A stretch of DNA of 36,765 bases, taken from Reclinomonas americana ATCC 50394. Lineage: Eukaryota. This document shows positions 180-34,498 of this stretch, piece after piece (position 1 is the first letter of the stretch; each line of letters starts with the position of its first letter). The notes beneath the pieces were generated by a model. That model saw only the letters and a program-made list of their open reading frames with translations. It was not told the DNA's origin and made no database searches. The position numbers and the translations under genes are program-made. The stretch is from contig PS015101.1 in the NCBI GenBank assembly GCA_048213135.1, positions 51,514 to 88,278 of the forward strand, written 5' to 3'.

Positions 180-1493
180 CGGCGAATGAGCACATTGGGC
201 AGCGCCTTGGGATACAGCTGACACACCCGCGCGACGAGCAGCGCCAGCGTCACGCCACCAAAGAAGCCAAGAATATTCGAATACACGCCACGCCCTGTCG
301 GAAACGAACAAAATAAGAGGCAACCGCTTGCACAACGCTGCCTTGCATGCCCGCAACTGCGCGCCCACAACTTGACCGCCCGCAACGTGACACGAAACGG
401 CTCAATGCGCGGCACCAACCGAAAGAACTCGGCCGCCACACGCGGACCATTCAACGACCTCTGCGTCTGCTCATCGACTCCGCGCAAGTGATTCTCATCC
501 AACACATCCCACTCGACGCCCGGCTGCGGCGCCGATGCCACCGCCGCAAAGAGCAAATCCACGGGCACTCCACGACAGCGGAACTTGATCACAGGCACGT
601 ACGCATCGGGAACAGGCTGTCGTGCATGTCAACAGAGAGAGAGAGAGAGAGAGCAGTCAGAAGGAGAGCACGAGACACAGGGAGAAAAACGGCAGGGAGA
701 ACGATGGCAGGGAGAACGACGCACAGGGAGAAAAACGACAGGGAGAGAGAAGTGAGAACCACACAAACAGGGAAAGAAACGGCAGGGAGAGAGACGTAAG
801 AGAACGACACACATAGAGAGAAAGAGAGTACGAGACACACTCAAGACAAACATACAGGGAGAGAAGAGAAAGGAGAGAATGAGAGACTTGTTCTTTGAAA
901 AATGCATGGCAAACCGTCAACTCTGCGACATCTGCGCGCGCGGCCAGTGCATCCACAAACGACGAGAAGAAGTCGCCACGTGTCACACACGTCGGCGCAA
1001 TGACCACACTGCACGCATGCATGCATGTATGAATGATTACGTAACGGATTTTGCCTCCGTTTTTTTTCTCTTTTGTCACGCAACGCGTCAATGTCTGAGC
1101 CGCTTCCATGCACACCCAGTGCGTACGATCCAAACGGCACCATTCGCGCAGTGCCACCTGCACCTGAAAGACCCTTTGCGCGCGCACATGACTCCACCCA
1201 TTCACATGCGCATTGCTCCAGATCTCCAATGACCTTGCGTGCATGCTCTGTGTAAGCAGACTTTAGAGAGAGAGAGAAAGAGAAAGAGAGACGAAACTCG
1301 CTGTCTCAGCAATGACTCCTCCTCTGACTCGTACAGTTGAAAGTCGTGCAAAAGCGCATCTAACTCCGCAGAGGCGGCCTCGTCGGCGGCAGTCGGCTCA
1401 GTCAACGAAATGGGCTCTGGATAAATGAGTAAGAGAGAGAGAGAGAGAGAGAGAAGCAGAGAGAAAAGAGAAGGCGAGCTCACCGCCATACAT
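180..1493 (-). CDS. PAP1: Canonical nuclear poly(A) polymerase, 5' part (continues past window start), at least 5 exons
   Basis: Spliced translation MYG|EPISLTEPT...FGSYALGVHGSGSDIDA|VVIAP...|PVPDAYVPVIKF...VDLLFA...RSLNGPRVA...VKLWAR|RRGVYSNILGFFGGV...CQLYP. Contains the nucleotidyltransferase GS/DxD motif and typical PAP motifs. All introns GT-AG. Confidence 0.95.
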
Positions 1494-1499
1494 GTTATG

Positions 1500-1850
1500 T
1501 CGAAAGTGGACAATGGACAGAGCGAGCGCGGTTGTCCACTTTGATCACAGAGTGAGTGTGCAGGGTTGAATGCGTTTTGCCGTGCGCAGTGCGAGAGAGA
1601 GAGAGAGAGAGAGAGTAATGCGCGTGTGTTAGAGAGAAAAGGGGAAAGAGAGAACATCTCGAAAGTGGACAATGGACAGAGCGAGCACAGTCTGATCAGA
1701 GTGCACAACGCGTTATGCCGTGCTTAGTGCGAGAGTAGCTGTGTATGTGCATGCGTGTGTGTAATAGAGAGAAAAGAAGAAGAGCCCACTGCGATCATCT
1801 CGAATGTGGACAATCGAGAATTGTCCATTGTCCACTTTGATCACCGAGTG
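1500..1850. repeat. Three degenerate copies of a GTGGACAATGGACA / TGTCCACTTT inverted-repeat element in the divergent promoter
   Basis: TCGAAAGTGGACAATGGACAGAGCGAGC is identical at 1500-1527 and 1659-1686. A related copy lies at 1800-1845. Inverted arm TTGTCCACTTT at 1532-1542 and 1828-1838. Confidence 0.8.
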
Positions 1851-2025
1851 AGAGCGAAGGGTTTAACGCCACACACACACACGCGCGCACAGTGCAGCAA
1901 GAAAGGCGTGCACACACACGGAGCAGCACAAAGCATTACAACTTTTGTGTGTGGACAGTGCGGGACAGTGCTCACTCTGTCCCCTTCTGTCCCTTAGTGT
2001 TTGTGTGAGTGAGTGTGAGGGGAGA

Positions 2026-4812
2026 ATGTCGATGTTTGCTGTGGAAGAGGAGAATCGCGTTTTGCAGCGTGTGCTTGCACAAAAGGAGGCGGAGATTGAT
2101 CGTTTGCGCAAGGTGTGCACGCACATGCAATTCGCTTTTTTTTTCATGGCACACTCACTGACTCTCTCTCTCTCTCTCTCTCACTTGCGCTCACTCTCGA
2201 TCGCTCAATAGCAAGTGGAATACTTTGAGAAGTTGACACAGGATGGTGTGTGTGCTGTGTGCATGTGTGTGTTTGTTGTTTGTGATGTTGTTCCGACGAG
2301 GCAAACGCACAGAGCGCGGTCGAGTGGCGCAACAATCGCTGGATGATATGAAGAATAGGTGAGCGGAGAGAGAGAGAGAGAGAGAGAGAGAGGAGGAGAG
2401 AGAGAGAGGAGGAGGAGAGAGAGAGGAGGAGAGAGAGAGAGAGAGAGTCGCGACGACGACGCGTCGTACGACGTACGGACCGGACGGACGGACGGTAGTA
2501 CGGTACGACGACGANNNNNNNNNNNNNNNNNNNNNNNNNNNNNNNNNNNNNNNNNNNNNNNNNNNNNNNNNNNNNNNNNNNNNNNNNNNNNNNNNNNNNN
2601 NNNNNNNNNNNNNNNNNNNNNNNNNNNNNNNNNNNNNNNNNNNNNNNNNNNNNNNNNNNNNNNNNNNNNNNNNNNNNNNNNNNNNNNNNNNNNNNNNNNN
2701 NNNNNNNNNNNNNNNNNNNNNNNNNNNNNNNNNNNNNNNNNNNNNNNNNNNNNNNNNNNNNNNNNNNNNNNNNNNNNNNNNNNNNNNNNNNNNNNNNNNN
2801 NNNNNNNNNNNNNNNNNNNNNNNNNNNNNNNNNNNNNNNNNGTTCGCCCCTCACACTCTTCTACCTCTCGTTCTCCCCTCTCGTTCTCCCTCTCTCGTTC
2901 TGTCCCACTCTCGTTCTCCCTCTCTCGTTCTCCCTCTCTCGTTCTCCCCTCTCGTTCTCCCCTCTCGTTACGCCCTATCGTTCTCTCTCTCTCGCTCTCC
3001 CCTCTCGCTCTCCCCCTCTCGCTCTCCCCCTCTCCTTCTCTCGGTCTCCCCTCTTGTTCTCCCCTCTCGCTCTCCCTCTTGCTCTCCCCTCTTGCTCTCC
3101 CCTCTTGCTCTCCCCTCTTGCTCTCCCCTCTCGCTCTCCCCTCTCGTTCTCCCTCTCGCTCTCCCTCTCGTTCTCCCTCCCTCGCTCCCCTCTCGTTCTC
3201 CCCCTCTCGTCCTCCCCTCTCGTTCCTCCCTCTCGTTCTCCCTCTCTCGTTCCTCCCTCTCGTTCTCCCCCTCTCGTTCTCCCCTCTCGTTCCGCGCTCT
3301 CGTTCCGCCCCTCTCGCTCATCACCTCCCCCGCAGCTACGAGGCACAGCTGCGACAGATGCGACTCGATCACGAGGTGACTGTGCGCGACATCAAGCGCG
3401 CGTATGAGAAGGAGACGCAGCGAGTTGCGTCTCTTTGAAGTGTGTGCATCTCCATTGCCTCTTCGTCTTCACTCACTTTATGAGCCGCGACAGCTGGAGC
3501 GCAATGCCGCGGTGGCGCTGGATCGCATGTATAGCGGGCGATCGACGGAGGAGTTTGTGCATCGGAATCAGGTGGAGGAGCTGCGTGAGCGATTCAATGC
3601 GCAGGCCAAGGCGCTGGAGGAGGCGCTGGAGCGGGAGCAGAGGCGGGCGGATGAGGCGCGTGAGGCATACCATCGACTGGCGGTGGAGTCGAGTGGGCGC
3701 ATCAAGCAGCTGGAGCACGAGGTGCGTGTGGCGCGACGGCTGGCCGACACGGACGAGACAATGGCAGCGTTGGGTATCGATCGCTCGGAGCGTGGAACGA
3801 CGGGACGGAAGGACCGCCTGCTCAGCAGCGGAGGAGGAGGCAGCGGCGGTGGGCTGCGCACGCCCACGAACAAGGCGCAGTCGTCGTCGGCGTCGTCGTC
3901 GGATGAGGACGAGGCGGCGGCGCACAGTCGCTTCTTCAACGACAAGTTGCTGGAGTTCCGCACGAGGGAGCGCGAGTTGGTGGAGCAAATAGCGTCGACC
4001 AAGCGCACGTACGAGAAGGAAATGGCTGATGGTGAGTGGCGGGGGAGGATGGAGGAGGAGAATGAGAATGGTGAACTCACGTTTTCCTCATGTCGGGCAG
4101 TGCTGGAGAAGATGCTGGTGCTGGTCGACGAGAAGCACGCGTTGCAAGAATCGCTCAAGCACTCCAACTCGCAGCTGCTGCGTGCGCAGGCCGATGTGGA
4201 CCGCCTGCGCAACGAAGTGGATCGCTACTCGACTGTTGCGTGCACGCAGCTTTTTGTCGTGGGAGAGTTATGTGTTGTCTCACTGGGCGATTTGTTGTGT
4301 GCAGGAGCTGGAGGTCAAGATTCGCGAGTGCAATCGTCTCGAGGATCTGTCACGGCAGCTGGAGTTCGACAACAAGGACGTCAGTGAGCGGCTACGCACC
4401 ATTGAGCTCCGGCACGCTGACGCATGCAGCGAAGGTGTGTGTTCCAGAGGGGAAATGCAAGGCTTTGTCATGCTGTGCTGCCGCTCATCGATCGACAGGT
4501 GAACGGCTGCGACACCTGCTCCGTGCGGCCTCGGCACACACGCAAGAAATACTGCACGAGAACGAGGTGCTGGCGCGGCATTCGAATATTGGCCGACCTC
4601 TGTCGGCCTCGGCCCCATCACCCGCACGCAGTTCGTTCGAGACATCGCTGCGCGGCACGCGGCCTCTGCCGCAGTCGTCAATCGCCACCGATGGATCGCT
4701 AATCTCCACGCTGGCGGGCAGCGGCAGTGGTCCTGGATCGCTGTCGTTTAGTGCATTTGGCGGAGCGTCGTCCGCCGCCGCAGCCTCGAAGCGCGTGTCA
4801 TTTTTGTTGTAA
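2026..4812 (+). CDS. Coiled-coil protein of unknown function (about 8 exons, one intron spans an N-gap)
   Basis: Exons join in frame via GT-AG introns: MSMFAVEEENRVLQ...RK|QVEYFEKLTQD|ERGRVAQQSLDDMKN|SYEAQLRQ...ETQR|LERNAA...|VLEKM...|ELEVKIRE...|GERLRH...KRVSFLL*. Rich in E/R/L/Q heptads. Confidence 0.75.
2842..3320 (+). repeat. Intronic CT-rich minisatellite (CTCTCGTTCTCCC-like units)
   Basis: Repeated units directly visible, ending at the acceptor CCCCGCAG near 3335. Confidence 0.85.
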
Positions 4813-4847
4813 GTCGCAACGCCCCGCGATGCTCGAGCGTGCGTGTG

Positions 4848-5100
4848 AATGTAGCGATGATATAAACCAACACTTTCTCTGTGTGCGCGCGTGGTTCTTC
4901 ATGTAAGTTCTCTACAACTGCGCGCAGCACTTTTCTCCAATCATAATGTAGCGATGACAGAAACCGACACATTTTGCGTGTGCGCGCGTAAGTTCTCTCT
5001 ACAACTGCGTGCAGCGCTTGTCTCCAATCATAATGTAGCGATGACAGAAACCGACGCTTTTGTGTTTGCACGCGCGTGGCTCTCCATACAATTCCTCTAC
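4848..5100. repeat. Tandem repeat, about 90-97 bp unit, about 2.7 copies, between convergent stop codons
   Basis: AATGTAGCGATGA recurs at about 4848, 4945 and 5032. CTCTACAACTGCG..GCAGC..TCTCCAATCATAATG recurs twice. Confidence 0.85.
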
Positions 5101-5137
5101 GCCAAGTGCGTTACTGCGCGCACATTCTCTCATCTCC

Positions 5138-6451
5138 TCACTTCTTTTGCTTGTTCTGCACGGCGACCACGCGATCGACAAGGTCTTGCGATGCGTAGCA
5201 TTGAGCCTGTGCACCCACATGCGCGTGTCAGCACCCTCGACGATACACAGACTGCCTCTCGAGCAGAACATACCTGTGCGTCGGCCTCGCGCTGCAGGCA
5301 CCGATCGAGATCACCGAGCACCTGCTGTCGCAGACTCTGCAGGGCAGTGCGCACCGACAGGGAGCCAGCATCGGCAATCTGATACGCGATCTCCAGCGCT
5401 CGTGGCAGCACCTACGGATATGGTTCAGTCGGTGGCACGAAGCGGAGAGCTGCGGGGTTTCACGCAACATCATCGACACTCGGGCACGCCTCCAGCACCA
5501 CACCGCGCTTCGCCGCCTCGTCACCCGAAATCAATTCTCCACTCAACAGCAGATAGTTGCTGACTTGCGAGTTGCCGACAATGCGCGGCAGGAAGAAGGT
5601 GCCGCCCATGCCCGGATGCAGGTTGAGCTTGGTAAAGTTGACGCCGAGCTGTGCGTTATTCTGACGACTGAGTGTCGAAACAGAATGAGATGAAGAAGGG
5701 CGAGGATTGTTGCACCTTGGCAGTGCTCGAGGCCACGCGAATGTCGGTGGCCAGTGCCACGCACAGTCCAGCGCCCACAGCTGTGAGTGGAGAGTCAGTC
5801 GCGAGGAGAAACTCTTCTTCTATCTGCAGTGGGCGGACATACCGTGCCCGTTGATGGCCGAGATGACGGGCACTGGCAGCTGCAAGAGCGACAGGAAGCG
5901 ACCGTAACTAATACAGCAGAAGGCACGCATGTGAGTGTGTGTGTGAAAGAAAAAGAAAGACAGTGGCAAGAGGGGCGCAACAAGGCTCGCATGTGCTTCG
6001 CATTGTCGGCTGGTGTCGATCGCGACCGCTCCAGCAGGAAGTCCAGGTCGCCACCAGCACTAAAGGCACGACCGGCACCTTACACAACAAGCATCCAGTG
6101 AGTGAGTGACTCTCTGAGCAGAGTGAGGGAAGGGGGTGAGCGCGCACCAGTGAGCACCACTGCTGAGAGTGTGTCAGGCGACTCGGTCTTGAGCTGATCG
6201 ACCACTCGCACGAAAGCTTCGCCCATTTCCACGCTGAGTGCGTTCAGCTTGCTCTGTGGTGTGGCGATTTAGCAGGAGAGAGAGACTAAGAGAGAGAGAG
6301 AGAGAGATGAGGAGAATGCAACTGGTCGATTGAGTGTGATGATTGCCACACGCTTGTCGCGCTCTGCACGCGTGAGCAACACGGGTGCGTTGGCGTCGGA
6401 GGACATGAGGCGACGGAGAGGGGCGGTGGTGAGAAGTCGGCGCGCGAACAT
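5138..6451 (-). CDS. Enoyl-CoA hydratase/isomerase (crotonase family), probably mitochondrial
   Basis: Spliced: MFARRLLTTAPLRRLMSS (presequence-like)...VAIITLNRP|SKLNALS...VVLT|GAGRAFSAGGDL...|...LPVPVISAINGH|AVGAGLCVALATDIRVA...|LGVNFTKLNLHPGMGGTFFLPRIVG...QNKQKK*. Confidence 0.92.
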
Positions 6452-7159: not shown

Positions 7160-8912
7160 TCACTTGCGCTTCTTCTCAGCCGGTCGCGCTCCATCCAGTT
7201 CGTAGTCATCCAGCTGATCGTTGTAGCGCATGATCTGCACGACACGTAACGAGTCAGTGACACCAGTGGATGCAGACAGAGACACGAATCCCTCCGTGCT
7301 TTTTTCTTCCTCTCTCGTCTTTCTCTCCCTTCTCTGCTTGCCTTCGCCCTCTCCTCTCCTCTTCCTCTCTTGCCCCCTCTCCTCTCCTCTCCCTCTCTTG
7401 CTTTCTACTTCCCCTCTCGCCCTTGCCCCCCTCTCGTCTCCCCTCCTCTCCCCTCCGCGCTTCCTTCTTCCTCACTCCTGTGCTTCCCTATTCCTTTCTC
7501 GCCCTCCTCTCCCTTCCGTGCTTCCTTCTCCCTTGTCCCCGCCTTCGCCCCTCTCTCCCTCATCACCTTTTCGCGAATCTTCGAGTTGCGCGTCCACGTC
7601 ACAAAGTCTTCCATGGTGCGCGTCACATGGAACGCCGGCTCTGTCACCACGTGCGGCCCCACGCGAATGTCTGCGCAGAACAAAAAAATGAGCAATCAAT
7701 TTCGCACAGAAAAAGGGGAGACAAGGAGAGGCACACAACGTCCTTGCTCCACAAACGACACGGCCTCGGCCAGCTGCTCCGCCATCTTCAGCTTCTGCAG
7801 CATCACCGCCAGTCGCCGCCGGCAAAAGGCCGACACTGCCAGCTTCTCGCACACGGTAAGGTTGGTGGTGGAGGTGATCACGCCCATGTTGAAGCTGCGG
7901 GGGAGGAGAGAGTGTGAACGGGAGAAGGCGAAGGTGAAGGAGAAGGTGAAGAGGAGAATGAAAAGGCAAAGGATAAGAGGAGAAGGAGGAGGAGAAGAAG
8001 AGCAAGAGAGACAGGTTGAGCAGGAGGAGAGGAAGAAGATGTAAAAGAAGAAAATTAAGGAGGAGGAGGACGAGAAGAAGAAGAAGAAGAAGAAGAAGAA
8101 TAAGGAGGAGGAGGAGGACGAGAAGAAGAAGGAGAAGGCGAAGAAGACGAAGTACAAGGAGGACAACATCATGAGGAAGGAGGAAGAAGAAGAAGAGGAA
8201 GAAGAAGGGGACGAAGAAGGGGACGAAGAAGAAGAAGAAGAAGAAAGAGGAAGAGAGAACGAAGACGACGAAGAAGACAAGAAGGAGAAGAAGAAGAAGA
8301 AGAAGAAGAAGAGGAGGAGGATGAAGAAGACGGAGAAGAAGAAGAAGAAGCAGAAGAAGGAGAAGTCGGAGAAGCAGAACAAGAATAACAACAAGGAGGA
8401 CAACAACAACGACATCATGATCATCATCCCCTGCAAAACAACAACACCCTGCAGCAGAAGACACGCAACAGCTTCTCCAACAGCTGCTCAGTGACACGAA
8501 TCCTCACGGGATCACGCTGTGGCAACTCCTTCAATTGCGACACCAGCTTGGTCACCAGTCCGCACACCTTGTTGTACCTGCACTCCAGTGAGCACACAGA
8601 CACCACACGCACAGAGCAAGAGCAAGAGAGCAGACTCAACTTGGAGTAATCATCGCGATCCTGCAGGTAATACTTGCGCATCACCTCGATCTCGCGCTGC
8701 TGCTTGCTCGATCGTGTGGACGCTCCATACAAGTCCACTTTTCTCAGCAGCTGTGTGTGCACACAGAGAAAAAAAGTGAGTCTCGTGCACATTCACATCA
8801 CCAGACATGGCCGACTTGCTGATTCACTTTCTTCTCTAGATGAAGACTCAGATGACGACTGAGACACAGCGACACAACGCACCTTCTTCTCATGGTGCTT
8901 GAGCTGACGCAT
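7160..8912 (-). CDS. IMP3: U3 snoRNP protein IMP3 (6 exons)
   Basis: MRQLKHHEKK|LLRKVDLY...MRKYYLQDRDDYSK|YNKVCG...EQLLEKL|FNMGVI...VSAFCRRRLAV...FVEQG|HIRVGPHVVTEPAFHVTRTMEDFVTW...KIREK|IMRYNDQLDDYEL...*. Confidence 0.96.
7900..8430 (-). repeat. Intronic (TTC/TCC)n low-complexity expansion within IMP3
   Basis: GAA/GAG trinucleotide tract on the + strand inside the intron 7895-8469. Confidence 0.85.
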
Positions 8913-9064: not shown

Positions 9065-10550
9065 ATGGGCAAGGGAAAGAAGGCCGCACGCGCGGGAGAA
9101 GATGAGGACACGAGGGTCCGTATTGCCATTGTGTCTGGCGAGCGATGCAAGCCGCGCAAGTGCAAGCAGGAGTGCAAGAAGAACTGCCCGATTGTGAAGA
9201 TGGGTGAGTGGCAGCAGAGAAAAGAAGGAGACGGGCGAAGTGGGGTTGGGACATGGTGCGCACACATGTGTGCTCACTTTCACACGCACACGTGCATGTG
9301 TGTGCACTTGAGTTGCTTGATGCGTCCATCTGCACGCGCTTGTGCCGATGTCTGTGAGTGAGTGGGCAGTGAGCAGCGAGGGGACATGTCCAAACTGCGA
9401 CTGTCTGTGTGTGTGACCACTCATGTGACCACTCGCGTGCAGGCAAGCTGTGCATTGAGGTGAATCCGGCCGACAAGATCTCCTTCATCTCCGAGGAGCT
9501 GTGCATCGGATGCGGCATCTGTGTCAAGGTTCATCAAGATTGGAAGGGCCGACTTGTCTTTTCCCAGCGCAGATCCTAACTCGGTCGTTCGTGCAGAAAT
9601 GCCCATTCGAGGCCATTGCGATCATCAATCTGCCGAAGGATTTGTCGTCGCAGACCACACATCGTTATGGACCCAACTCGTTCAAGCTGCATCGTCTGCC
9701 GCAGCCGCGTCCGGGTCAGGTGCTCGGTCTCGTCGGCTCCAATGGAACGGGCAAGTCGACAGCGCTGAAGATCCTCGTCGGCCAGTACAAGCCGAATCTG
9801 GGCCGCTGGGATGTTGCGCACGCATGCATTCGTTTCCTGTGGTGTTAGTCTTCAAGCTCAATCTCCTCTGTCTCGCTTTCCAGAACCCGCCAGAGTGGAC
9901 CGAGATCCTGCAGTACTTCCGTGGCTCGGATCTGCAAAACTACTTCACCAGGCAGCTGGAGGAGAGGCTGCGTGCCAAGATCAAGCCGCAGTACGTCGAC
10001 CACATCCCCAAGGCCGTCAACGGCACCGTGAACCAGGTGGTGGCGTCCAAGGACGAGAAGCAATGTCGCGATCATTTGCTGAGGGAACTCGGTGCGCAGT
10101 GAGCCCGTTGTCTCTCTCCCCCCTCCGCTTCTCTCTCTCTCTCTCTCACACACACACGTTCGAATAGACCTCGAGAAGATTGCTCACCGCAACGTGGGCG
10201 ACCTGAGCGGTGGTGAGCTGCAGCGCTTTGCCATTGCTGTGGTGTGGATGCAGGAGGCCGATGTGTACTTGTTTGATGAGCCGTCGTCGTACCTCGACAT
10301 CAAGCAGCGCCTCGTGGCTGCGCGCATCATTCGCGACCTGCTGACCACCGACAACTACGTGGTCGTCGTCGAGCACGATTTGTCCGTGCTGGATTACCTC
10401 TCGGACTACATTTGCATGCTGTACGGTGTGCCGGGTGCGTACGGAGTTGTCACTACCCCGTTCTCTGTCCGCGAGGGCATCAACATATTCCTGGCGGGAT
10501 TCTTGCCGACGGAGAACTTGCGCTTCCGCGAGGTGGAGCTGACCTTCAAG
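9065..10550 (+). CDS. ABCE1: ABCE1/RLI1 ribosome recycling ATPase, exons 1-5 (FeS domain and NBD1)
   Basis: [24 protein letters not shown]...|...[19 protein letters not shown]...[14 protein letters not shown]...GSNGTGKST...[12 protein letters not shown]...FDEPSSYLD...VVEHDL...ELTFK. Confidence 0.97.
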
Positions 10551-10599
10551 GTGGGTGAGGGAGAAGGGCTGGATTAGTCAAACAACTCGTTCTCTCTCT

Positions 10600-11300: not shown

Positions 11301-12061
11301 CGAGAGAGAAAGGAGAGAATGGGAGCACCAGAAGAGGGGAGACAGGAAGAAGATTGTTTCGCAATATATCGGGCTGTGTCGATTCTTGCATCTCACACAC
11401 TCAACTTTCACGCCTTGTTGCACTCTCCCTCTCCCGTTGTGTCTCTCATTCTCACTGTTGCTCTCGATTCTGCTGCGTCGTCGTTTTGTTCCTCCCTTCT
11501 TCCTTTTTCCTCCTTCCCCTCTCTATTTACCCTCTGTACCATCTCCGCCCCACGCTCTTCCTCTCTCTGGCACTTTTCATTCTCTTCTCTCTCTCTCTCN
11601 NNNNNNNNNNNNNNNNNNNNNNNNNNNNNNNNNNNNNNNNNNNNNNNNNNNNNNNNNNNNNNNNNNNNNNNNNNNNNNNNNNNNNNNNNNNNNNNNNNNN
11701 NNNNNNNNNNNNNNNNNNNNNNNNNNNNNNNNNNNNNNNNNNNNNNNNNNNNNNNNNNNNNNNNNNNNNNNNNNNNNNNNNNNNNNNNNNNNNNNNNNNN
11801 NNNNNNNNNNNNNNNNNNNNNNNNNNNNNNNNNNNNNNNNNNNNNNNNNNNNNNNNNNNNNNNNNNNNNNNNNNNNNNNNNNNNNNNNNNNNNNNNNNNN
11901 NNNNNNNNNNNNNNNNNNNNNNNNNNNNNNNNNNNNNNNNNNNNNNNNNNNNNNNNNNNNNNNNNNNNNNNNNNNNNNNNNNNNNNNNNNNNNNNNNNNN
12001 NNNNNNNNNNNNNNNNNNNNNNNNNNNNNNNNNGGGCGATTACTAAAAACAGGAGACAAGA

Positions 12062-12709
12062 TTACTCTTCAAGGAAGAAATAGGTACCGGCCGTCTTTTG
12101 CTCCTTGTCCTTGGTGGAGTTCAGCTTGTTGATGCGTGGTCGGTAGTTGGCGGGATCGCGGCGGAACGTAATGTCCATGCTTTGCAGGAACAGGTTCATG
12201 CCCGTCAGCAGCGGTTGCGGTCTGAGCACGTGCGGTGGTGGGTCGTGAGCATAATCCAAAGGCAAGGGAAATAAAAAGAAAGACGGGACGCAACGAGGTG
12301 GCAGTGCAGTCGACCGACGGCAATCCCGTGTACACAATGACACGATCGGCCAAGTAGGTGGCCATGATGAAATCGTGCTCGACGACAAAGGCCGTGCGCT
12401 TGGTGTGCAGAATGAAGCGCTTGATGACACGCGCAGCAATCACACGCTGCTCCGAATCCAAGTACGCCGACGGCTCGTCAATGAGGTAGACTTGAGCCGG
12501 CTTGCCGAGTGCCAGAATCAGACCGACACGCTGCAGCTCTCCACCAGAGAGGTTTTGCACCTGGTGCGCAAGTGTGAGCAAAAAAGTTTGCACACAAGAA
12601 GAACCCTTTCGCAAAAAACACACACCTCCAGATCCAACAGGTTGTCCAGGTTGAGCGGCTTGGCCACATCGGTCTGGAACTGCGGCAGCAGGTACGCCTC
12701 GTTGATCTT
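12062..12709 (-). CDS. ABCE1: ABCE1/RLI1 C-terminal exons (NBD2), opposite orientation to the 5' exons
   Basis: [19 protein letters not shown]...[15 protein letters not shown]...[15 protein letters not shown]...IKRFILH...[16 protein letters not shown]...|PQPLLTGMN...[26 protein letters not shown]...FFLEE*. Flanked by N-gaps on both sides. Confidence 0.95.
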
Positions 12710-19500: not shown

Positions 19501-21682
19501 CAGCCCACCCGCGTCGCCGTCCAGTGGAGCGCGCACCGGCAATCAGCGGCGAGGGTCGGCTTCTGGGTCGGAGCCGTCGAGCCCATCCAACGGTGGTGCT
19601 CGTGGTGGCGCACGTCGCACCGAGCCGGCGACCAAGATTCCGTCGCCGAGCAATGCGCGAAGACGGCCATCGACTGCCGATCGAAGTGACGATGACGACG
19701 ATGCACCGTCACCCGCACCACCCACGGGCAATCGGCGGGCGGATCTTGACGGTGCGTGAGGGATTGTGTGCCGCGCCGATGGTGACAGTTGATTCACACT
19801 TTCTTTCTTTTCACGCAGATGTGTTTGGTGCGCCGTCGGACAGGTTAGCCAATGTGTTTGGAGATGCCGGCGGCCCAAAGCCCGTCGTGATGCAACCTCG
19901 GCGAGCACCGGCCGCCGTCTCAGCAGCGGTGGCTGGTCGCTCTGCAGGACCACCGAGTCAGGTGCCATACACAGCCGAGGAGGCTGCGTTGGCCGCCGAA
20001 CGCGACCTCGTGGTGAAGCAGCTGAACGACATTCGCCTCGCCCTCACCCAACTGTCGGCTCACCAGGCGGTGCGTTGTCCAAGTTGCTTGTGTTTCTCAG
20101 TCGGCGCGACTCACCCTTCAGGGGCGCAGATGTTTGGTGAGCAGCACATCCAGCTGCGTGAGAAACTGGAGCACCAGGCGGCCGACATGCGACGCCTGAC
20201 GAACAAGATTGTCGAGGGTGACGACGGTCCCCCCGTTCCCCTTCGCCCACTGTCAGGTTCGCACAGAAGAGAGAAACGGATGAATGGTGCGTGTCAACTC
20301 ACTTGATTGCTGCTCAGGCGGCCGCGGTCGTGGGATGCAGCTGCCGTCGGAGGCCATGAGTCGAATGGCGGTGGCCGCTTTGCCGCATCGAGATGTCACG
20401 TCAACCACAACGACGACCACCACCACCGCCACAGCAGCAGCGTACAATCGACCGACGGTTGTGGTGGAGGAGCAGCAGCCGGAGACCCGCGAGCACGCGC
20501 TGCTGCTGCAACGCCGGCGCGAGCTGGAGGCCGAATTGAGGCGGTTGCAAGACGCGTCGTCGAGCTGTTGCGTGTATATGTCTTCTTCTTCTCTCTCTCT
20601 CGCTGTGCAGTGTCTCATGTGAGTGAGCAGACATACCACCAAGCTCCCCCGACCGTGCGTCGTCACCGGCACCGACACCAGTGGCCCTGTCGTCGAGACC
20701 GTCGACTGGAGTTGCGACAGACGTCTCCACCCGCGAGGAGTGTCGTGAACGAGAGAGTTGACATTGCGTCTCTGTGCAGAATCGCCAAAAGCTGGTGGAT
20801 GTGATGAATCCCGCCGACCCGCACAGCGCATGGCGCCGACCGACCACGCCAAAACTCGCCGGCATGGCCGTGCCCGACGATGCGAGGTACGCTGTGCAGG
20901 TGTGATTGAACAAGTGAGTGTGCATGCTGACGTCTGTGCGCAGCCGGGGCAAGACGCCGGGTACGGCCGTGTCGCTGGCCGGGCACAGCACGTTTGTGCG
21001 CCCACCGGACATGCCCAAGTTGCGCATTCGTCTCTCTCTCTCTTCGCTCTTCCCGCCACAGTCTGCTGACTTGCGCTGTGTGCACACAGTCCACTGCTGG
21101 AGGCCTCGGTCGACACGGACGAAGACGATGTGCACTCTCCGACGCTCGCTCGCCTCGAGTCGGCGGTGGACGACCGACTGAAGCGATTGCAGGTCTGCGC
21201 ATGCTCGCACACTTGCCTGTGCACGGTTTTCCCCTCACTCTTGGTGCTATGGCAGAAACTCGAAGGTGCCTTGTCGGCCGACAACTCCATGTCGTGCGAC
21301 ACCTCCATGCAAGACACGGATATCGAGCGGCTGACCGAGTACCTGCAGGCCATGTCGCCGCTGAATTCTCCCGAGAAGCCTCTGCGTTCACGACCGTCGT
21401 CGCGTGCAACTGGCGCATCCGCCAATGTTGCGTCATCACAACCTACTGTGTGCTGTTACTTGCCGTGTTCCTCACCCGTTAAGCTAGGGTAATCCCCTGG
21501 AACGCTCGCTCGCCGCGCAGACGACGTGGATCGACCTGAATGCCTCGACGCGCACCACCCTCAGCAACATGGCTGCGATGCTCAACATGGCGCAGGCTGT
21601 GGAGCTCGAACCGCCAACACCCGGACAAGAGTTCGACAGTCCCATCACCCCGTCGTCGCCCGTGGCCCGACGGCGACCGTGA
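16354..21682 (+). CDS. Large low-complexity coiled-coil protein, CSPP1/CCDC66-like (centrosome/cilium)
   Basis: About 20 in-frame exons. Segments YRQALQNQIRER and EMQEALQRQVEEKKRKQEEEKRKIEEEERREEER resemble the CCDC66/CSPP1 domain from memory. Ends ...PVARRRP*. Confidence 0.6.
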
Positions 21683-21727: not shown

Positions 21728-23000
21728 TCAGAGGAGCAGAGCAAGAGCGAGGAGACCGCCAAAGAAGAGGTGATACTGGGCGGTGCGCTGTGGGAGCTTG
21801 GCCAGCTCACCCTTCTCAAATGCACCCATGAGGCGGTACGCCTGCGGGAAGGTGATCAGCGGGAGCAGGATGCGAGTCCCATACGTGGACCACACAGTGA
21901 GGAGCCAGACGTGCGCGCCAATGAGCTGCGCGCAGTACCTGTCTCTCGCCCGGCGAGTGAGTGAATGGGGGATTATGGCGACAGCAGCTCTGTGTGACGC
22001 AACACAAAGTTGCACGCCTTGCGCCCAAAGATAATCGGGAATGTGCGAATGCCAGCCGCCTTGTCGGTCTCCGCATCGCGCGTGTTATTGGCATGCAGAA
22101 TCGCCGTGGTCACCAATCCCACCGGCACCGAGGCATACAGCGTCGCCCACACATGCTCGTTGCCGAGGGCCAGCGCGCCGCCAAGCATCAACAGCGGACC
22201 TGCACACACAGCAGCAACCGAGGAGTGAGCAAGCTGGCCGACGAAACTTGACGACGACAAGTGTCGAGTCGCACCAAACACAACAAAGATCGTCACATCG
22301 CCCAACGCATGATACTTGAGCGAAAACGGCGGTCCCGTATACGAAAACGCCAGCAGCACGCCCACAAAGCCGACTCCCAGCAGTCCCGCATTGGCCATGT
22401 ACGGCAGCTCACCGGTGCCGGCCTCCAACACCGCACGCATTCTCGGCGTCGGCCACACCACCAACCACAAGCCCAACAGCACTCCCAGCGCGCCCAGAGA
22501 CACCGCCAGCTCAAACACTTGCGTGGGCGTCACTATGCGGTCCACGAGGCTGCGATCGTCGGCCGACTTGCTCGTGTCGACCTTGTAATCAAAGCTGCGA
22601 TGTATCAATAATGAAATACAGTGGCAGTGGCAAAACAAACAAACAGTGGCGCGTAACTCGAAGAAGGTGTTGAGCAGGTTGCCAAAGGCGTGCAGGCACA
22701 GCGCGGCAATCGTCATTCCCTGTGACGGAGACAACTGATGAAAATCTGACTCTCTTTCTTTCGTGTGTGTGTGTGACACTGACCAGCATGCGACTGAGAG
22801 GCCACGACTCGTCCTCGTGCAGCTCATCAACCGCCAGTGCAAAGGACACTGCGAGAGGGACAAGTGTGGCAGTGAATGACCACGGCCGCGTGGCCATAAA
22901 CTGCGCGACACACACACACACACATGCGAGTGAGCGCGCAGAGTTGCGCGTGTGAGAGAGCGGGAGTGAAGCGGCGCCAAACCAACTCTGTGAAGCCCAT
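21728..23000 (-). CDS. UBIAD1: UbiA-family prenyltransferase (UBIAD1/MenA-like)
   Basis: ATRPWSFTATLVP, GNLLNTFFD|FDYKVD...DDRSLVD, YTGPPFSLKYHALGD, AILHANNTRDAETDKAAGIRT, LPQRTAQ motifs. Confidence 0.92.
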
Positions 23001-23065: not shown

Positions 23066-25360
23066 ATGCGTGTGTTTTTGCTCATTGCGCTGCTCATTGC
23101 GGCATTGGCGCTCTCTGCGGCTGCAAAGCGAGCCGGCACACGGCAACCACATCGACAGTACAGTTGCGCGCGCGCGTGTGTGTCTCACTGTCTCACTCTC
23201 TGTCACACACTCATCATATGCAGGCGACGATGGGCTCAACTTGCGGCCTATCATTGGCGTTCTCACACAGCCAAGTGATCCGGAGGTAAGATAGAGAGAG
23301 AGGGAAAAATTGTTGTCTTCTTCTCGCATTGTGATATCAACCCATGTGCTCAGTACCAACAATTCGGGCCGGCCATGATCCCTGGTGCGTCTCTTCACTC
23401 ACTTACTCTTACTCTCCTCACTGTTTGTTTGCTTAATCCTTGCATGTGTATGAGCACAGCGGCTTATGTCAAGTGGCTGGAGGTTCGTGCTGCCGTGTTG
23501 TCTTGTGCCGTGTTTGCACTTCCGCATGCCTTGGTGACCCTTGTTTGCTGGGCATTTACTCGGCGTTTGACCCTCAAACTATCGAATCCTCGACCTTTCA
23601 TTCTCTGTCCATTGTTCTGCAAGCCCTCGTCTCTTGATCTCCTGATCTTCCGACGCTTGCCCCTCGAGACGCTTGACTCTTGAACCTTGCATCCCTCGTC
23701 CCTTGATCCTCACCCTTGGACCTCGGACTGTCGAACCCTTGATCTCTTGATCTTCCCACCCTTGTCCCTCCTCGAACCCCGACCCCTCGTTCCTTGACTC
23801 TTGAACCTTTCATCCCTCGTCCCTTGACCTCGAACTCTCGAACCCTTGGATCCTTTGATCTGCCGCACAGACCTTCATCTTCAAGCCCTCGTCTCTTGAT
23901 ATTCGAACCTTTCATCCCTCGTCCCTTGATCCTCATCCTTGACCGTCGACCCTCGTACCCTTGATCTCCTGATCTTCAAGCCCTCGCCCCGTGATCTCTC
24001 GATCTTCCAACCCTCGTCCCTCGTCCCTTGATCTGTCAATCTTCCAACCCTCCTCCCATGACCCTCGAACCCCCGTCTCTTGATCTCTCGTCCCTCGCCC
24101 CTGTCGCCCTTGACCCTCATGACCCTCTGAATTGCGTTCTCTTGCGCACAGGCTGCTGGTGCACGAGTGGTGCCAATCTACTACGACTCGCCTGAGGTAC
24201 GCATGTATCGCTGCTGGATGCTTGGGAAATGCCGCTCATGCCGTGTCTTGCTTTTGTGAAGCCGGTGCTGGAGTTCATGTTCAACAGTGTCAATGGATTG
24301 GTGTTGATTGGCGGCGACACGGATCTCATTGATCATGCGACTCGTTGCGCGACGTCACTCTCTCTCTCTCTCTCCCTTGCTCTCTCTGTGTCTTGACGCT
24401 CTCCACCGACGCAGCGTATCAAATGGCCGCTCGTTACTTGTACCACCGAGCGATTCAGGCGTTTGAGCGTGAGAACGACTACTTCCCAATCTGGGGCACG
24501 TGCCTCGGGTTCGAGCAGCTGTGCATTCTCGGCGGCAACGACCAGTACGACATTCTTGGCAAGTTACGGGCTTTGAACTGAGCGTGCCTGTGTGTGGTGA
24601 CATTATCAGTGCCTGATCTGTCGGAGATGCTAGTTTCGATGCGCAGAACGAGACACTGCCGCTGCAGTTCACCGCCGATGCCGCATTGTCGCGTCTCTTT
24701 GATCCGACGGTCATCCCGATGGCCATTTACTCGGCGCTCTCCAGCAAGCCCATCACCGAGGTGCGTCGTCTCCTCGCTCAAATGCCGGCGTCGTCCACTC
24801 AATCGCAAGTGCACAGAATTACCACCACAACGGTGTCACCCCGCAAGCGTTCATGGCCAACAACAATCTCGCCATGAACTACCGCATCCTGTCGACCAAC
24901 GTGGATCGCAAGGGCGTCACCTTTGTTGCGGCCTCCGATCTCACGTATGAGTTTCTTATTTGTCTCCTTCTCATTCCACTTTCACCGCTCGGCAGATCTC
25001 CAGCATGGAGCATCGTCGCGTGCCAATCTACGCAGTGCAGTTCCACCCCGAACGACCGGCGTTCGAGTGGGACGCAAACGAGAACACACCGCACTCGTTT
25101 GACGCCATTCTGAGGTCTTGGACTTTTCCTCTTTCTTTCTCTCTTCCTCTTTCTCACTCTGTCGCCCCCCTCACAGCGGCCAGTACTTTGCCAACTTCTT
25201 CGTCCAAGAGACGCGCAAGAGCCACCACGGCTTCCCATCGCCGACCATCGAGTCGCACTATCTCATCTACTGGTGCACGTTGCAGCCCACTCTGAATATC
25301 GAATGGTTTTGTGTGTTTTGCGATGAGAAGTGTGTGCGTCGTCGGTCACGATGTTCACAG

Positions 25361-25551: not shown

Positions 25552-25611
25552 ACTCAGTGCTGGAAAAATACTCAACAATGTATATTCGCGATGCAAAAAA
25601 AGAAGCAGGTA

Positions 25612-27576: not shown

Positions 27577-27621
<45 letters not shown>

Positions 27622-30598
27622 CGAAAGCAACGAAACACGCAGCCAATAGGAGAGATCACGCAGCGCGCAAACACAAACATCGACAGCAAGAAAACAAGAG
27701 TCTCACCTGCTGCATGCCAGAATACGCAATGTCGTCGCGGAACTCCAAATAACAGCGGAGTTCCTGGTCCAACGCCTTGCGATTGTCTTCGTCTGTTACG
27801 CCCACAGGTGAGCATCCGCGCAGAGAGCAGCATCGTACCAAAAAAACAGACGCACCATCAGTGGTGGGCACAAAGGGTGCGGCAGAAAAGTCATTGTCGC
27901 ACAAGCGGCTGCCTTGCGCCAGCGACTGGAAGGTGTGTGTGCAGTGCGTGTGCACACAGTCCACGAGGGGATCGAGAATGAGCTCGAGTGCGGCGCTGTG
28001 CCTGTCGTAGCCTTGAATGTACGAGAAGCACTCGTCGGGATTGGTCGATTGTGGTCGTCGATACAGCGCCACGTGGTCGTCCTCCAGCCGTCGTACGAGA
28101 TCTATGCGGAGGTGATGAGAAGATGAATTAAGAGTAAGCGTGTGACCGATGCACGAAACACTTCAGCGAGCCCGTCAGTCGAACATGCCGGTGATCCACG
28201 TACACGACGCGCGAGTACACGCGCACCGCGTGGCGCACAACCAATGGAGCCCACGACTCGTGTGGAATGTCGAGGTAAAAGTGGAAGCCCTTTGGATCGG
28301 CCGCAAAAAGATCCTGCGCGCGACAGCGTTTAGAGAGGAGAAAGAGAGCGAAATAGAAATAGAGGGAGTGCACAAACCAGCGTGTCGTACACATCCACGT
28401 GCCGCCACATGCGCATCTCGTTCATCGCCGACTGCGTGAAACCGACGGCATAGATGGCCGCTCGTACACCGTAGTCGTAGCGATGCAGCGCGCCGACCAT
28501 GGTCGCCAGTTCCTCCACCGCGCGCTCTTCGTCGACTGCGATGAGGGGAGGGAGAAGGAGGCGAAGTGAGGGAATGGGGGAAGAGGGAAAGAAGAGAGGG
28601 TCGCAGTGAATGCGTTCTTCTGACACTCTATCCCATCTTCTCCTCTCCGTTCGCTCGTTTCGCTGCTTGGCAAGTCACCACCTCTGCGTCCTTTTGTCAC
28701 ACAGACGTCGTGCACTGCTCTTTCTCTTCAATGGAGTGGCCTCTCGTTGGTGCTAAGAAGTAGACAGAAAGCACTACGTGATGGCCTATTCGTATTCGTG
28801 ATTGCATGTGCTCACCGGCTATCAGCACAACGTGCTGCTCTCTCTCTCTCTCTCTCTCTCTGTGGTGTGTATGCCTATTCGCATGCCTGTTGCCCACATT
28901 CCTTTCCATCCCTTCTTCACTTGTCACTGTCGCACAGCTATCAGCTCTCTCTCATGTGCGTATGCGCGTGTTTGCCTATCGTACTCATCGCTACGCTGTC
29001 TAAATTCACGCGCCGCTGTCGCACGATGTCAGAACGATGTGTTGCTCTCTCTCTCTCTCCGTGTTTGGCTATCACCGTTGCATCACTAGGCTTCCTGTTT
29101 GCACGCACAATCAAAGCGTATTGTGCTGTTCTCACGCTCTCAATCGCACAGTTTTCTCCTGTTCCAGCGTGCCCTTCTCCTTCTCTCTCCCACACTCACC
29201 GCGATCGCCATGATTAATGTCCAACACAGGCACGAGAATTACAGTGACCTGCGAGGCCGCCAGCGGATCGCGCACGGTGACCGTGGCCTGCGGATTGTTT
29301 TCGTCATCGCCGAGATCAATCACGGCTCCCGACGATGACGACGAAGATGATGATGACGATGAAGATGAAGATGGTGGCAATGCAGGTGGCGTCGCAGGCG
29401 ACACGGGAATCGGTGCTCCAGTGGCCTGTGCACAGGATTAGAGAGAAGCAGATAGTCACAAATGCATACCGCCATCACGCAACTGCAGCCACCTGCCGAT
29501 CCACAAATCGCTTCACCGACTGCCGCACGGCCTTCTCCAGCTCCTCCAGTCGCTCATTGGTCTCTCGCCGAACCCATCGCTTGAACTGCGGGGGAGAACG
29601 AGAGCGCGAATGAGCAATGGAGGAAGGAAGCGATCGATGAGAGAGGAGTGGAGAAGAAGGGGAAGCTTGAATGCGAGTGAGCGACGGCGTGTGTGCGGGA
29701 GCGAAGGTGAATGCGATGGAGTGAGAGAGAGTGAGCGTGCAAGTGAGTGCGCGATGTTGTAAGCGATGGTGTATGCAATGAAGTGAGTGAGTGAGTGAGA
29801 GAGAGAGAGAGTGAGAGTGTGTGCGTGTATACGGGAGCGAAGGTGCATGCGATGGAGTGTGTGTGAGGGAGAGAGAGAGAGCAGCTGTATGCAATCGGGT
29901 GGTGTGAGCTAAGTGATGGTGTATCCGATGAAGTGAGAGAGTGAGTGAGTGAGTGTGTGTGTGAGCGATACAGTGAATGAGCGATAGNNNNNNNNNNNNN
30001 NNNNNNNAGAGAAAGAGAGAAGAGAGAGAGAGAAAGAGAGAGAGAGAGACAGAGAGAGGGAGGAAGAGAGTGAGAAGAAAGAGAGAAGAAGAGAATACGT
30101 GAGAGTGAAAGAACAAGACGCGTGTCACCCTCTCTCTCTCTCTCGCACACACACACACGCACACACACGCACACACACGCACGCACACACGCACACAGAG
30201 ACACGCACATCCTTGTCAATCAACTCTCTCACACTCTCTCTCCTCTCTTTCTCCCTCCTCCCTCTCTCTCCCTCTCTCTCCTCTCTCTCACACACACACA
30301 CCGAGTTGACCGACTCTGCAACTGCAGCAGTCACCGCCGCCGCATCGACCTTGCCACTCGCACTCTCCTTTCCTGCTGCAGCAGTCGCCGCCGCCGCCGC
30401 CGGGCGCCGCCCATTGGTCGGCCGACTTGAACCTGCCGTCGATCCATCACCAACCACCACAGGCGTCAACGACAACGCACTGTTGTTATCAGTGTTGTTG
30501 TTGTTGCCTCCGCCGCGGAGAATGACCACCAGTGAGATGAGAATGTAGAGAGAGACAGCGCCCACTGTCACGTATCGCCAGTTGATGGCGACTGTCAT
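25612..30598 (-). CDS. Type II membrane glycosyltransferase-like protein, possibly two GT-A-like domains
   Basis: N-terminal TM (YVTVGAVSLYILISLVVIL) and low-complexity stem. Domain 1: AIYAVGF...WAPLVVRHAVRVYSRVVYVD. Domain 2: ELYVGIEGLDPVFD...WNAMFFQAYADGSEYFMV|THPDTFF..GW. Exons link in frame. Function inferred. Confidence 0.6.
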
Positions 30599-32264: not shown

Positions 32265-32308
<44 letters not shown>

Positions 32309-33977
32309 GGTTTCTGTTGTTCAGCTTGCTCCTCTCGCCTTGCGCTCTCACACATTTGCCGATAAGTTTCTCTCGGCCTGCGGACTGACTGCGCTGCGAC
32401 ACCACCACCATACTGCAGTGCGGCCCATCGCTGCTGACTGCGGATCTCCTGATGCTCTCTCATCTCTCTCTCTCTCTCTCTCTGGCTGCCAGAGAGAGAG
32501 AGAAACAGGGTAGAATGCAAGAGAATAGAATGAGAGAGCTGAGGCAAAGAGTGACACTAAGAGTTCTCGATACCAGAATATGAAGCGGAGAGTTGGCAAA
32601 GAAAGAAAAAAGAAAGAAAGAAAGAGAGAGATGAGACAGCATCAGGAGTTCCGAAGTCAGCAACGTGGCCGCACTGCAGAATGGTGGTGTCGCTGCCAGT
32701 CTGCAACCTGATCGCCTCTCACTCACTGTGCTCTCTCTGATTTCTCTCTCGCGCCTCTGCCTCGCCTCTCGAGCATCCTCTCAACACACTTTCCTGCAGT
32801 TCTGCTTGCTCCGCTTTCCTTGCCTCCACTCTCCCCCCACACTCACCAGCGAGCGACGACACCACAGCCAGCGTGCCATTCGTCTTCTCCAGCTCCGGCA
32901 GCGCAGCCTTGGTGGTCACCACCGGTCCAATGTAGTTGGTCTCCATCAGCTGGCGGTAGAGCGTGGCCGGATCGTCGACCTCCTCCAGCGTCTTCACCAT
33001 GGAGACTCCGGCGTTGAGAATGACCATGTCGAGCTGGCCTCCGAGAGCGCGCACAGACTCGCGGATCAGACGCTCACAGTCCTCGGGCTTGGAGGCGTCG
33101 GCGACCACCACGGCGGCGGAGGAGCCATTCTCCTGAGAGGGAGAGAGAGGGAGTGAGAGAGAGGAGAGCAGAGGAGAGGAGAGCGTGGTGACTCACTCGG
33201 CAGCGCTGCGCGACAATGTCCAGTTGTTCCTTGCGACGTGCGGACAAGACAAGCCTGCAGAAAGAAGAGAGAGAGAGAGGGAGGAAGGAGGAGAGAGACA
33301 GGAGGGGTGTGAATAAGTGAGTGAGACGAGAGGAAGGACNNNNNNNNNNNNNNNNNNNNNNNNNNNNNNNNNNNNNNNNNNNNNNNNNNNNNNNNNNNNN
33401 NNNNNNNNNNNNNNNNNNNNNNNNNNNNNNNNNNNNNNNNNNNNNNNNNNNNNNNNNNNNNNNNNNNNNNNNNNNNNNNNNNNNNNNNNNNNNNNNNNNN
33501 NNNNNNNNNNNNNNNNNNNNNNNNNNNNNNNNNNNNNNNNNNNNNNNNNNNNNNNNNNNNNNNNNNNNNNNNNNNNNNNNNNNNNNNNNNNNNNNNNNNN
33601 NNNNNNNNNNNNNNNNNNNNNNNNNNNNNNNNNNNNNNNNNNNNNNNNNNNNNNNNNNNNNNNNNNNNNNNNNNNNNNNNNNNNNNNNNNNNNNNNNNNN
33701 NNNNNNNNNNNNNNNNNNNNNNNNNNNNNNNNNNNNNNNNNNNNNNNNNNNNNNNNNNNNNNNNNNNNNNNNNNNNNNNNNNNNNNNNNNNNNNNNNNNN
33801 NNNNNNNNNNNNNNNNNNNNNNNNNNNNNNNNNNNNNNNNNNNNNNNNNNNNNNNNNNNNNNNNNNNNNNNNNNNNNNNNNNNNNNNNNNNNNNNNNNNN
33901 NNNNNNNNNNNNNNNNNNNNNNNNNNNNNNNNNNNNNNNNNNNNNNNNNNNNNNNNNNNNNNNNNNNNNNNNNNNNN

Positions 33978-34052
<75 letters not shown>

Positions 34053-34196
34053 TGTGAGTGTGTCAGTGATTGCGGAGAGAGTGCGGAAGAGAGTGTTGAA
34101 GGAGAGTCGGAGAAAGTAACTCCTGAGTCACACACACACAGAGAGAGAGAGAGCGCGTCCTTGCATGCCTCCCTCGTCTCCCTCGCACCTCGTCTG

Positions 34197-34239
<43 letters not shown>

Positions 34240-34498
34240 GCATGCGCGCAACTGAGTGCCCATGCGGGACAGTGCGTAGGCCAAGTACTCGCCAATGCCC
34301 GAGGAGGCACCAGTGATCACAATGCGCTTGTTCTTGAAGTACTTGTCTGTGTGTGTTGCACGCGAGTGAGTGCTTGTCACTCTCTCTTTCCATTTTGCGC
34401 GCACACTCACCTGCGTCAACACGCGGTCGCAGGTAGTGGTGCCATCCAAAGTAGAGCACAAGAACCCAGCACGAGTAGTAGAGAATGTCTCCGATCAT
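31494..34498 (-). CDS. Short-chain dehydrogenase/reductase (DHRS7/11beta-HSD-like, N-terminal membrane anchor)
   Basis: IVITGASSGIG (TGxxxGxG), LVLSARR, LDMVILNAG, METNYIG, VVSSLA, YAPTK (YxxxK), PPFVRT. Confidence 0.93.
33978..34050. repeat. (GT)n microsatellite next to an assembly gap, inside an SDR intron
   Basis: Pure GT dinucleotide run. Confidence 0.95.

Follow-up and report, generated by a model that had tools for sequence, protein, structure and literature searches.

Conventional and one-base-shifted 5′ splice sites, with GTTGCG as the commonest donor, in a genomic window of Reclinomonas americana

Where does an intron begin when its donor consensus appears to lie one base away from the cut? 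This question is raised by a 36,765-nucleotide stretch of the Reclinomonas americana ATCC 50394 genome (assembly GCA_048213135.1, contig PS015101.1, positions 51,514 to 88,278 of the forward strand), referred to below as the window and numbered from its first letter. An earlier note, made from the sequence alone, had proposed that the hexamer GTTGCG starts about 25 introns here and that it forms a dominant, one-base-shifted class of 5′ splice sites (donors). We find that two donor classes with a one-base offset are present in this DNA, and that GTTGCG is strongly enriched at intron starts, where it makes up a plurality, not a majority, of donors.

The analysis is based on 46 introns placed by homology in eight conserved genes (ABCE1, thioesterase, GGH, crotonase, UBIAD1, IMP3, PAP, and SDR). 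For ABCE1, every donor/acceptor pair around each break was tried with any dinucleotide allowed, and the spliced translation was scored against protein P0007; at all six ABCE1 introns, the top-scoring set contained exactly one GT-AG pair. For the other seven genes, the coding strand was read and, where possible, the residue count across the junction was compared with that of a protein from a database or a solved structure. All 46 introns begin with GT and end with AG, as do all seven introns of a further gene model built from open reading frames (ORFs). Removal of the introns restores continuous alignment to homologous proteins for ABCE1, GGH, UBIAD1, IMP3, thioesterase, PAP, and crotonase, and the Pfam coordinates of single exons in crotonase and thioesterase are weak but collinear. 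Searches with exon-only proteins gave no match for crotonase and one for GGH. Two other routes to gene models were dropped: a codon-usage gene finder, which discriminated poorly and returned nine low-scoring gene fragments, and the choice of acceptors by ORF length alone, which is insufficient in this GC-rich DNA. Intron length is 51–85 nt in 40 of the 46, and four of the six longer ones contain tandem-repeat arrays or assembly gaps. Judged by these sequence features, they would be short GT-AG introns of the usual kind, spliced by the major spliceosome.

Aligned at the cut, with the last exon base as −1 and the first intron base as +1, the 46 donors fall into two classes. The shifted class (n = 20), which has T at +3 and a base other than G at −1, carries G at +5 in none of its members and G at +6 in 19, whereas 24 members of the conventional class (n = 26) have G at −1, 19 have it at +5, and one has it at +6 (Fisher tests between the classes: +6 G, 9e-11; +5 G, 2.5e-7). 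Four donors that begin with GTT and have G at −1 (GTTCAT, GTTCTT, GTTCGT, and GTTTGC) lack the +6 G and behave as conventional. Within the conventional class, six donors read GTGCGT, GTGCGC, or GTGCGA, and five read GTGAGT or GTGAGC. Both classes occur in each of the eight genes.

The exon side differs in the same way when donors are grouped by the base at +3. G at −1 is present at 4 of 24 GTT sites vs. 20 of 22 other sites (p = 3e-7), and at 6 of 35 vs. 20 of 22 (p = 4e-8) after addition of 11 further GTTGCG sites from outside the homology-placed set; at the 14 homology-placed GTTGCG sites it is absent throughout. On the intron side, the G that 17 of 22 other sites have at +5 has its counterpart at +6 in 19 of 24 GTT sites. 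In base composition, the final exon position of the GTT sites (A9 C5 G4 T6) resembles position −2 of the other sites (A11 C3 G2 T6; chi-square p = 0.73), a match that allows both classes to be fitted to a single eight-base template, AG[G/T]TNNGT, cut before its first GT to give AG^GTNNGT or A^GTTNNGT (^ marks the cut). A whole-site position weight matrix comparison of a shift with a bulged nucleotide was swamped by the fixed GT positions, and an exon-side test was used instead; its likelihood is higher for a shift of the whole site than for an unshifted exon, the margin being 45.8 bits with 24 sites and 65.2 bits with 35.

These sequence statistics support the suggestion of the earlier note that displacement of the donor consensus by one base is a main mode; the shifted class comprises 20 of the 46 introns. 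The accompanying description of the shifted site as GTGCGT with one extra T is contradicted by the exon side, since the G found at −1 in 24 of 26 conventional donors is kept in only 4 of 24 GTT donors. The shifted site would be better described as G^GTGCGT in which the second G is replaced by T and the cut lies one base upstream. A TGCG element at variable distance from the GT was also considered; it starts at +3 in 14 introns, at +2 in six, and further downstream in only four, a pattern that the register model absorbs.

GTTGCG occurs 44 times on the two strands of the window, compared with 26.83 ± 4.81 in dinucleotide shuffles (maximum 37; none of 100 reached 44). It is the commonest donor hexamer, starting 14 of the 46 homology-placed introns, vs. 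30 of 4207 non-donor GT sites (0.71%), which bears out the expectation that it is commoner at donors than in background. T at +3 likewise marks 24 of the 46 placed donors vs. 16.7% of the 4207 other GT sites, the remaining donors having G (14), C (4), or A (4) at this position. The donors are nevertheless highly varied, with 25 distinct hexamers across the 46 introns: GTTGCG 14, GTGAGT 4, GTGCGT 3, GTGCGC, GTTACG, and GTATGT 2 each, and 19 further hexamers once each. GTGAGT and GTGCGT thus do occur beside GTTGCG, as had been noted, and with 24 other hexamers present, "dominant" overstates the position of GTTGCG. All 25 coordinates previously given for GTTGCG donors were recovered, each on the strand of its own gene. 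Their assignment as intron starts holds for the 14 in conserved genes and extends to two in an ORF-complete gene model; the other nine are probable donors read from their architecture.

The earlier note also held that junctions in the conserved genes are fixed by homology. This applies to nine of the 14 GTTGCG introns, for which numbered alignments are available. In ABCE1, the intron at 9813–9883 (+) is the unique best junction with any dinucleotide allowed (571 vs. ≤567), and that at 12222–12294 (−) has the top score and is the sole GT-AG pair among ties. The GGH intron at 24925–24995 (+) is flanked by residues 241 and 245 of P0121. At the UBIAD1 intron (21939–22003, −), the query and chain 8djk_B both have 28 residues between anchors, whereas two alternative frame-consistent pairs miss this count by −5 or +7 residues. 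The IMP3 intron (7895–8469, −), which is 575 nt long and holds an (AGA)n array, leaves residues 81, 82, and 83 of chain 5wlc_LZ continuous. Two thioesterase introns are set by residue counts against chain 6bje_A, exactly so for 15929–16013 (−) and also for 15816–15890 (−). The 63-nt PAP intron (295–357, −) equals a 21-residue insert flanked by residues 238 and 239 of chain 4lt6_A, and removal of the crotonase intron at 5412–5468 (−) leaves chain 3kqf_A continuous within one residue. The five others were placed by frame reading: in GGH, 23163–23223 (+; frame only, with a signal peptide as the 5′ exon) and 24344–24414 (+); in crotonase, 5908–5981 (−; with Pfam collinearity); in PAP, 1009–1084 (−); and in SDR, 33255–34252 (−), which covers the assembly gap at 33340–33977.

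How might one splicing machinery serve both classes? At a conventional donor, the G at exon position −1 pairs with the base of the U1 small nuclear RNA (snRNA) next to those that pair with the intron. U1 ACUUAC pairs with GUAAGU, according to the preprint 10.1101/2022.06.08.495308, and the +5 G pairs with U1 C4 (PMC4856993). In a shifted register, as described in PMC4856993, all U1 pairs are moved by one position, and such a register has been shown experimentally at rare human sites. We propose, with about even odds, that a single U1 population reads AG[G/T]TNNGT in both registers, with the cut set later at the first GU. Where the variable base is G, the cut would come after AG, giving AG^GTNNGT and the conventional class; where it is T, the only GT would begin one base earlier, giving A^GTTNNGT, mostly as A^GTTGCG(T/C). 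One U1 snRNA population would pair identically with the template in both classes, with one mismatch tolerated opposite the variable base, and in the shifted class the U1 helix would sit one base further downstream, measured from the cut, than at a conventional donor. The first G of a shifted donor would occupy the place of the conventional −1 G and its +6 G that of the +5 G, leaving the mismatch opposite the +2 T, and at a later step the catalytic spliceosome (U6, U5, and Prp8) would settle on the first GU for the cut. That U1 pairing is the template reader, and that one U1 species suffices for both classes, is what we infer from the donors. In the window itself, no snRNA genes were detected with Rfam at the gathering threshold, and ARAGORN likewise found nothing.

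Several observations weigh against a single standard U1 read in two registers. The shifted class is more uniform than the conventional one, 14 of its 20 members being exactly GTTGCG; C is found at +5 in 18 of 24 GTT sites vs. at +4 in 9 of 22 others, and T at +7 in 10 of 20 shifted sites vs. at +6 in 13 of 22 others. Standard U1 (ACUUAC, as given in 10.1101/2022.06.08.495308) would not pair with the preferred C, and the GCG preference therefore hints at a non-standard U1 or another reader. With regard to the sample, tied junction scores were always resolved to the GT-AG pair, the GTTGCG junctions at 23163, 24344, 5981, 1084, and 34252 (five of the 14) depend on frames and on a continuation typical of the family, and all 46 introns, together with the seven from the ORF model, come from a single 36.8-kb window.

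A changed or second U1 is for this reason a serious rival, although we consider it rather unlikely. Its 5′ end could have co-evolved, or a second paralogue could have arisen, so as to pair fully with GUUGCG(U), with a base changed opposite the variable position or a G replacing the standard U opposite the C, and either two species or one altered U1 would then serve both classes. The +5 C and the GCG uniformity, which standard U1 leaves unexplained, would be accounted for, and precedents are described in 10.1101/2022.06.08.495308 for Entamoeba (GUUUGU donors with U1 ACAAAC) and Mastigamoeba (GUGCGC with U1 ACGUAC). However, the same source gives standard U1 for Thecamonas and Mamiellales despite their C-rich donors, both classes are mixed inside every one of the eight genes, and the 25 hexamers seen in 46 introns, the top one in 14, differ from the 88–90% for a single hexamer quoted there in co-evolved cases. 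A stronger version, in which A^GUUGCG(U) constitutes a second 5′ splice-site code for about 40% of introns, read by its own U1 paralogue with a changed 5′ end or by a dedicated factor, alongside the conventional code in the same genes, is in our estimate unlikely.

The exon side argues most directly against a bulged nucleotide, in which U1 would pair normally with the exon and GU, the U at +2/+3 would bulge out, and pairing would resume at GCGU. PMC4856993 documents such bulges at +2/+3 in human donors, and the intron side fits, given the displacement of the consensus G from +5 to +6. But with a bulge, exon position −1 would still face its usual U1 base, and the preference for −1 G would be expected to persist; its loss at GTT sites, complete at the placed GTTGCG sites, and the 45.8-bit deficit relative to a whole-site shift make this explanation very improbable. 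We regard it as similarly improbable, if anything slightly more so, that the pattern is a local or gene-model artefact, with misplaced junctions or an unrepresentative window and ordinary donors genome-wide. The assembly is rough, with six N gaps and the two ABCE1 halves on opposite strands, five GTTGCG junctions are without a numbered alignment, and nine further sites are assigned by architecture only. Against this, residue counts from solved structures or database proteins fix nine GTTGCG junctions, the any-dinucleotide scan of ABCE1 puts GT-AG best or tied best, the class pattern recurs in eight of eight genes, and a T inserted by sequencing error would not strip G from exon position −1. 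An unconventional cut, AG^TTGCG, with the 3′ cut also one base later and introns starting with U, would preserve the usual relation between U1 and the cut, and homology is often blind to it (tie at 12294; 571 vs. 566 at 9813). It would leave 20 introns without a GT start or an AG end where GT-AG works for all 20, and GT-AG is the unique best pair at 9813; we consider it extremely improbable. In 14 of the 20 shifted-class introns, the 3′ exon starts with a base other than G, and there the two placements give junctions that differ by one base.

Two further types of intron were considered and rejected. U12-type introns have an extended 5′ motif of the RTATCCTT type, and none of the 25 donor hexamers begins GTATCC or ATATCC. 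An introner-like mobile family would be expected to share an element, and none was found: all-against-all BLASTN of the 46 introns returned 48 short matches, and the 15 examined were 13–54 nt long and consisted of low-complexity CT/CA runs.

Compared with other systems, the shifted class has the same signature as the human shifted-register sites described in PMC4856993, namely no need for −1 G, a +3 U, and a consensus G displaced by one base in the downstream direction. According to that source, all validated noncanonical registers in humans together are estimated to account for 1.5% of 5′ splice sites, vs. 20 of 46 introns for the shifted class here, and the human register was proven with suppressor U1, whereas ours is deduced from DNA statistics alone. 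As reported in 10.1101/2022.06.08.495308, the commonest donor departs from GUAAGU in Entamoeba, with U at +3, and in Mastigamoeba, with C at +4, as it does here. Those two lineages use a single consensus in the normal register (88–90% GUUUGU in Entamoeba), in contrast to two registers and varied donors within the same genes. The GTGCG(T/C)/GYGCGY donors of Mamiellales, including Ostreococcus, are used with standard U1 in the account of the same preprint and resemble our conventional class. Short introns are common to Mamiellales and the window, and a branch-like motif near the 3′ end may be another shared trait. Mamiellales donors are near-uniform and in the normal register, and the excerpted text of 10.1101/2022.06.08.495308 describes no shifted GTTGCG class for them, unlike the varied donors seen here. 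Among jakobids, Andalucia godoyi is intron-poor, with introns in 12% of 864 genes (PMC7050145). A literature search that included jakobid and Reclinomonas splice sites, covering titles and the openings of abstracts, found no GTTGCG-type donor or two-register set.

A register shift that is rare in humans may thus be routine in this protist. So far, it is mostly a few rare human sites and engineered mutants that have been used to ask how the cut site passes from U1 to the catalytic core, and which phosphate is chosen if the U1 helix and the GU do not coincide; if our reading is true, about four in ten introns lying out of register beside conventional ones in the same genes would form a natural experiment on the hand-off from U1 to the catalytic core. 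A dedicated second code, if true, would instead mean that the major spliceosome has, specifically in this lineage, a second way of recognizing 5′ splice sites. In practical terms, gene prediction trained on GTRAGT-like donors will produce faulty models in genomes of this kind.

The remaining introns of the eight genes place the other shifted donors among conventional ones. In ABCE1, the any-dinucleotide scan gave four further introns, with donors GTGAGT (9204–9442, +), GTTCAT preceded by G and in the conventional register (9529–9596, +), GTGCGC (10092–10167, +), and GTGTGT (12561–12625, −). GGH, on the (+) strand, has seven more, placed by frame reading and alignment: GTAAGA (23286–23353), GTGCGT (23385–23459), GTTCGT preceded by G in a 669-nt intron (23483–24151), GTACGC (24197–24261), the shifted GTTACG (24563–24633), GTGCGT (24761–24816), and GTCTTG (25115–25176). 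On the (−) strand, crotonase contains a shifted GTTGCA (6254–6322), GTGCGC (6079–6147), and GTATGT (5207–5273), all placed by frame reading, and GTATGT (5781–5842) and GTGCAA (5649–5715), placed by frame reading together with Pfam. UBIAD1 (−) has GTCAGT (22720–22783; frame reading), a shifted GTTACG (22595–22657; frame reading and chain 8djk_B), and GTGCGA (22200–22274), where a 24-residue gap in the chain equals the read-through intron. IMP3 (−) begins with GTGCGT (8751–8882; frame reading), followed by the shifted GTTGAG (8578–8640) and GTTGTG (7671–7739), both placed by frame reading with chain 5wlc_LZ. SDR (−) has two GTGAGT introns (34347–34410 and 33133–33196; frame reading), and a probable further donor, GTGAGT at 32846 (−), follows its fourth exon; its acceptor was not found and it stands outside the 46.

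PAP (−) has a shifted GTTTCG (1246–1297; frame reading) and a GTTTGC preceded by G (617–914; frame reading and chain 4lt6_A). Its GTTGCG intron at 295–357 is in frame and stop-free, so that retention would add 21 residues and leave the ORF unbroken. An unused GTTGCG lies at 386, in the PAP exon 29 nt upstream of this intron, and the last PAP exon in the window ends at a probable further donor, GTGAGA at 179 (−), whose acceptor was not found and which is likewise outside the 46. The variant donors that had been predicted at 8640, 22657, 24563, 1297, and 7739 are all intron starts in this set. Two more had been proposed at 16658 and 16885, where the hexamer GTTGAG is present on the (+) strand.

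The thioesterase gene (−) opens with a GTGAGC intron (16099–16156; frame reading and Pfam profile) and contains, in the region of chain 6bje_A positions 48 to 64, a two-nucleotide exon. The frame and the residue count of 6bje_A fit only if the exon TG (15814–15815, −) is placed between introns of 75 nt (the GTTGCG intron at 15816–15890) and 62 nt (15752–15813, donor GTTCTT preceded by G; frame reading and 6bje_A), which fills the positions from 48 to 64 exactly. Both introns carry their own branch-like motif and YAG. Alternatively, 15752–15890 may be one 139-nt intron with a one-nucleotide assembly error. Downstream, GTCTTC (15612–15672) separates profile positions 63–87 from 88–115, and GTCCCT (15480–15536) separates 88–115 from 115–150. 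The last two introns start with GTGAGT (15310–15360; frame reading) and GTGTTT (15144–15201; frame reading and Pfam profile), and an unused GTTGCG lies inside the former at 15335.

Outside the conserved genes, a coiled-coil gene model built on frame continuity only contains seven GT-AG introns, all on the (+) strand, and its spliced ORF is complete, running for 456 codons from ATG to stop. Its five conventional donors, GTGTGC (2113–2211), GTGTGT (2246–2312), GTGAGC (2359–3335, spanning a gap), GTGAGT (4032–4100), and GTGTGT (4435–4498), are preceded by G in all cases, and its two GTTGCG donors (3424–3493 and 4235–4304), which also show branch-like/YAG architecture, are preceded by A and T. Nine other GTTGCG hexamers are probable donors: 14430–14435 (−), 18428–18433 (+), 18560–18565 (+), 20567–20572 (+), 20711–20716 (+), 21019–21024 (+), 21427–21432 (+), 29478–29483 (−), and 13514–13519 (−). 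All nine are assigned by architecture only, and the last does not match the branch-like/YAG pattern. A branch-like motif and YAG 45–100 nt downstream accompany 10 of these 11 GTTGCG donors without homology (the exception is 13519). The corresponding counts are 945 of 4127 for other GT sites and 2 of 19 for the GTTGCG sites that remain. G precedes the donor in only 2 of the 11. In the homology-placed set, a CTNAY-type motif with YAG at 45–100 nt is found in 28 of 46 introns vs. 23% of other GT sites, the six long introns falling outside the length range. Many of the 46 have a CTCAC/CTGAC-like motif, often CTCACTG, about 10–40 nt before the YAG, and their acceptors are mostly CAG, with a few TAG and AAG.

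The window is an intron-rich stretch of a draft scaffold with six N runs and 38–61% G+C in 2-kb steps. The 5′ half of ABCE1 lies at 9065–10562 (+) and the 3′ half at 12709–12065 (−), with a gap at 11600–12033 between them, and the middle of the protein, about residues 346–430 of P0007, is missing; the scaffold probably has one contig in inverted orientation here. The best ABCE1 match is from the jakobid Seculamonas (84% identity), the other 119 matches listed being at ≤79%, and no sequence of more than 78% identity turned up when metagenomes were scanned with an ABCE1 exon. The presequence-like N-terminus of the crotonase and the presence of a UBIAD1 gene would fit an aerobic, free-living protist.

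Tandem repeats occur in several introns: a 46-nt unit × 3.5 in PAP (666–823), a 13-nt unit × 34.5 in the coiled-coil gene (2864–3316), (AGA)n × 103 in IMP3 (8073–8385), and (GT)43 in SDR (33978–34063). Between the coiled-coil and crotonase genes, an 87-nt unit is repeated in tandem about 2.5 times at positions 4848–5074, and three copies of a motif of about 20 nt can be seen by eye upstream of PAP, at 1490–1860.

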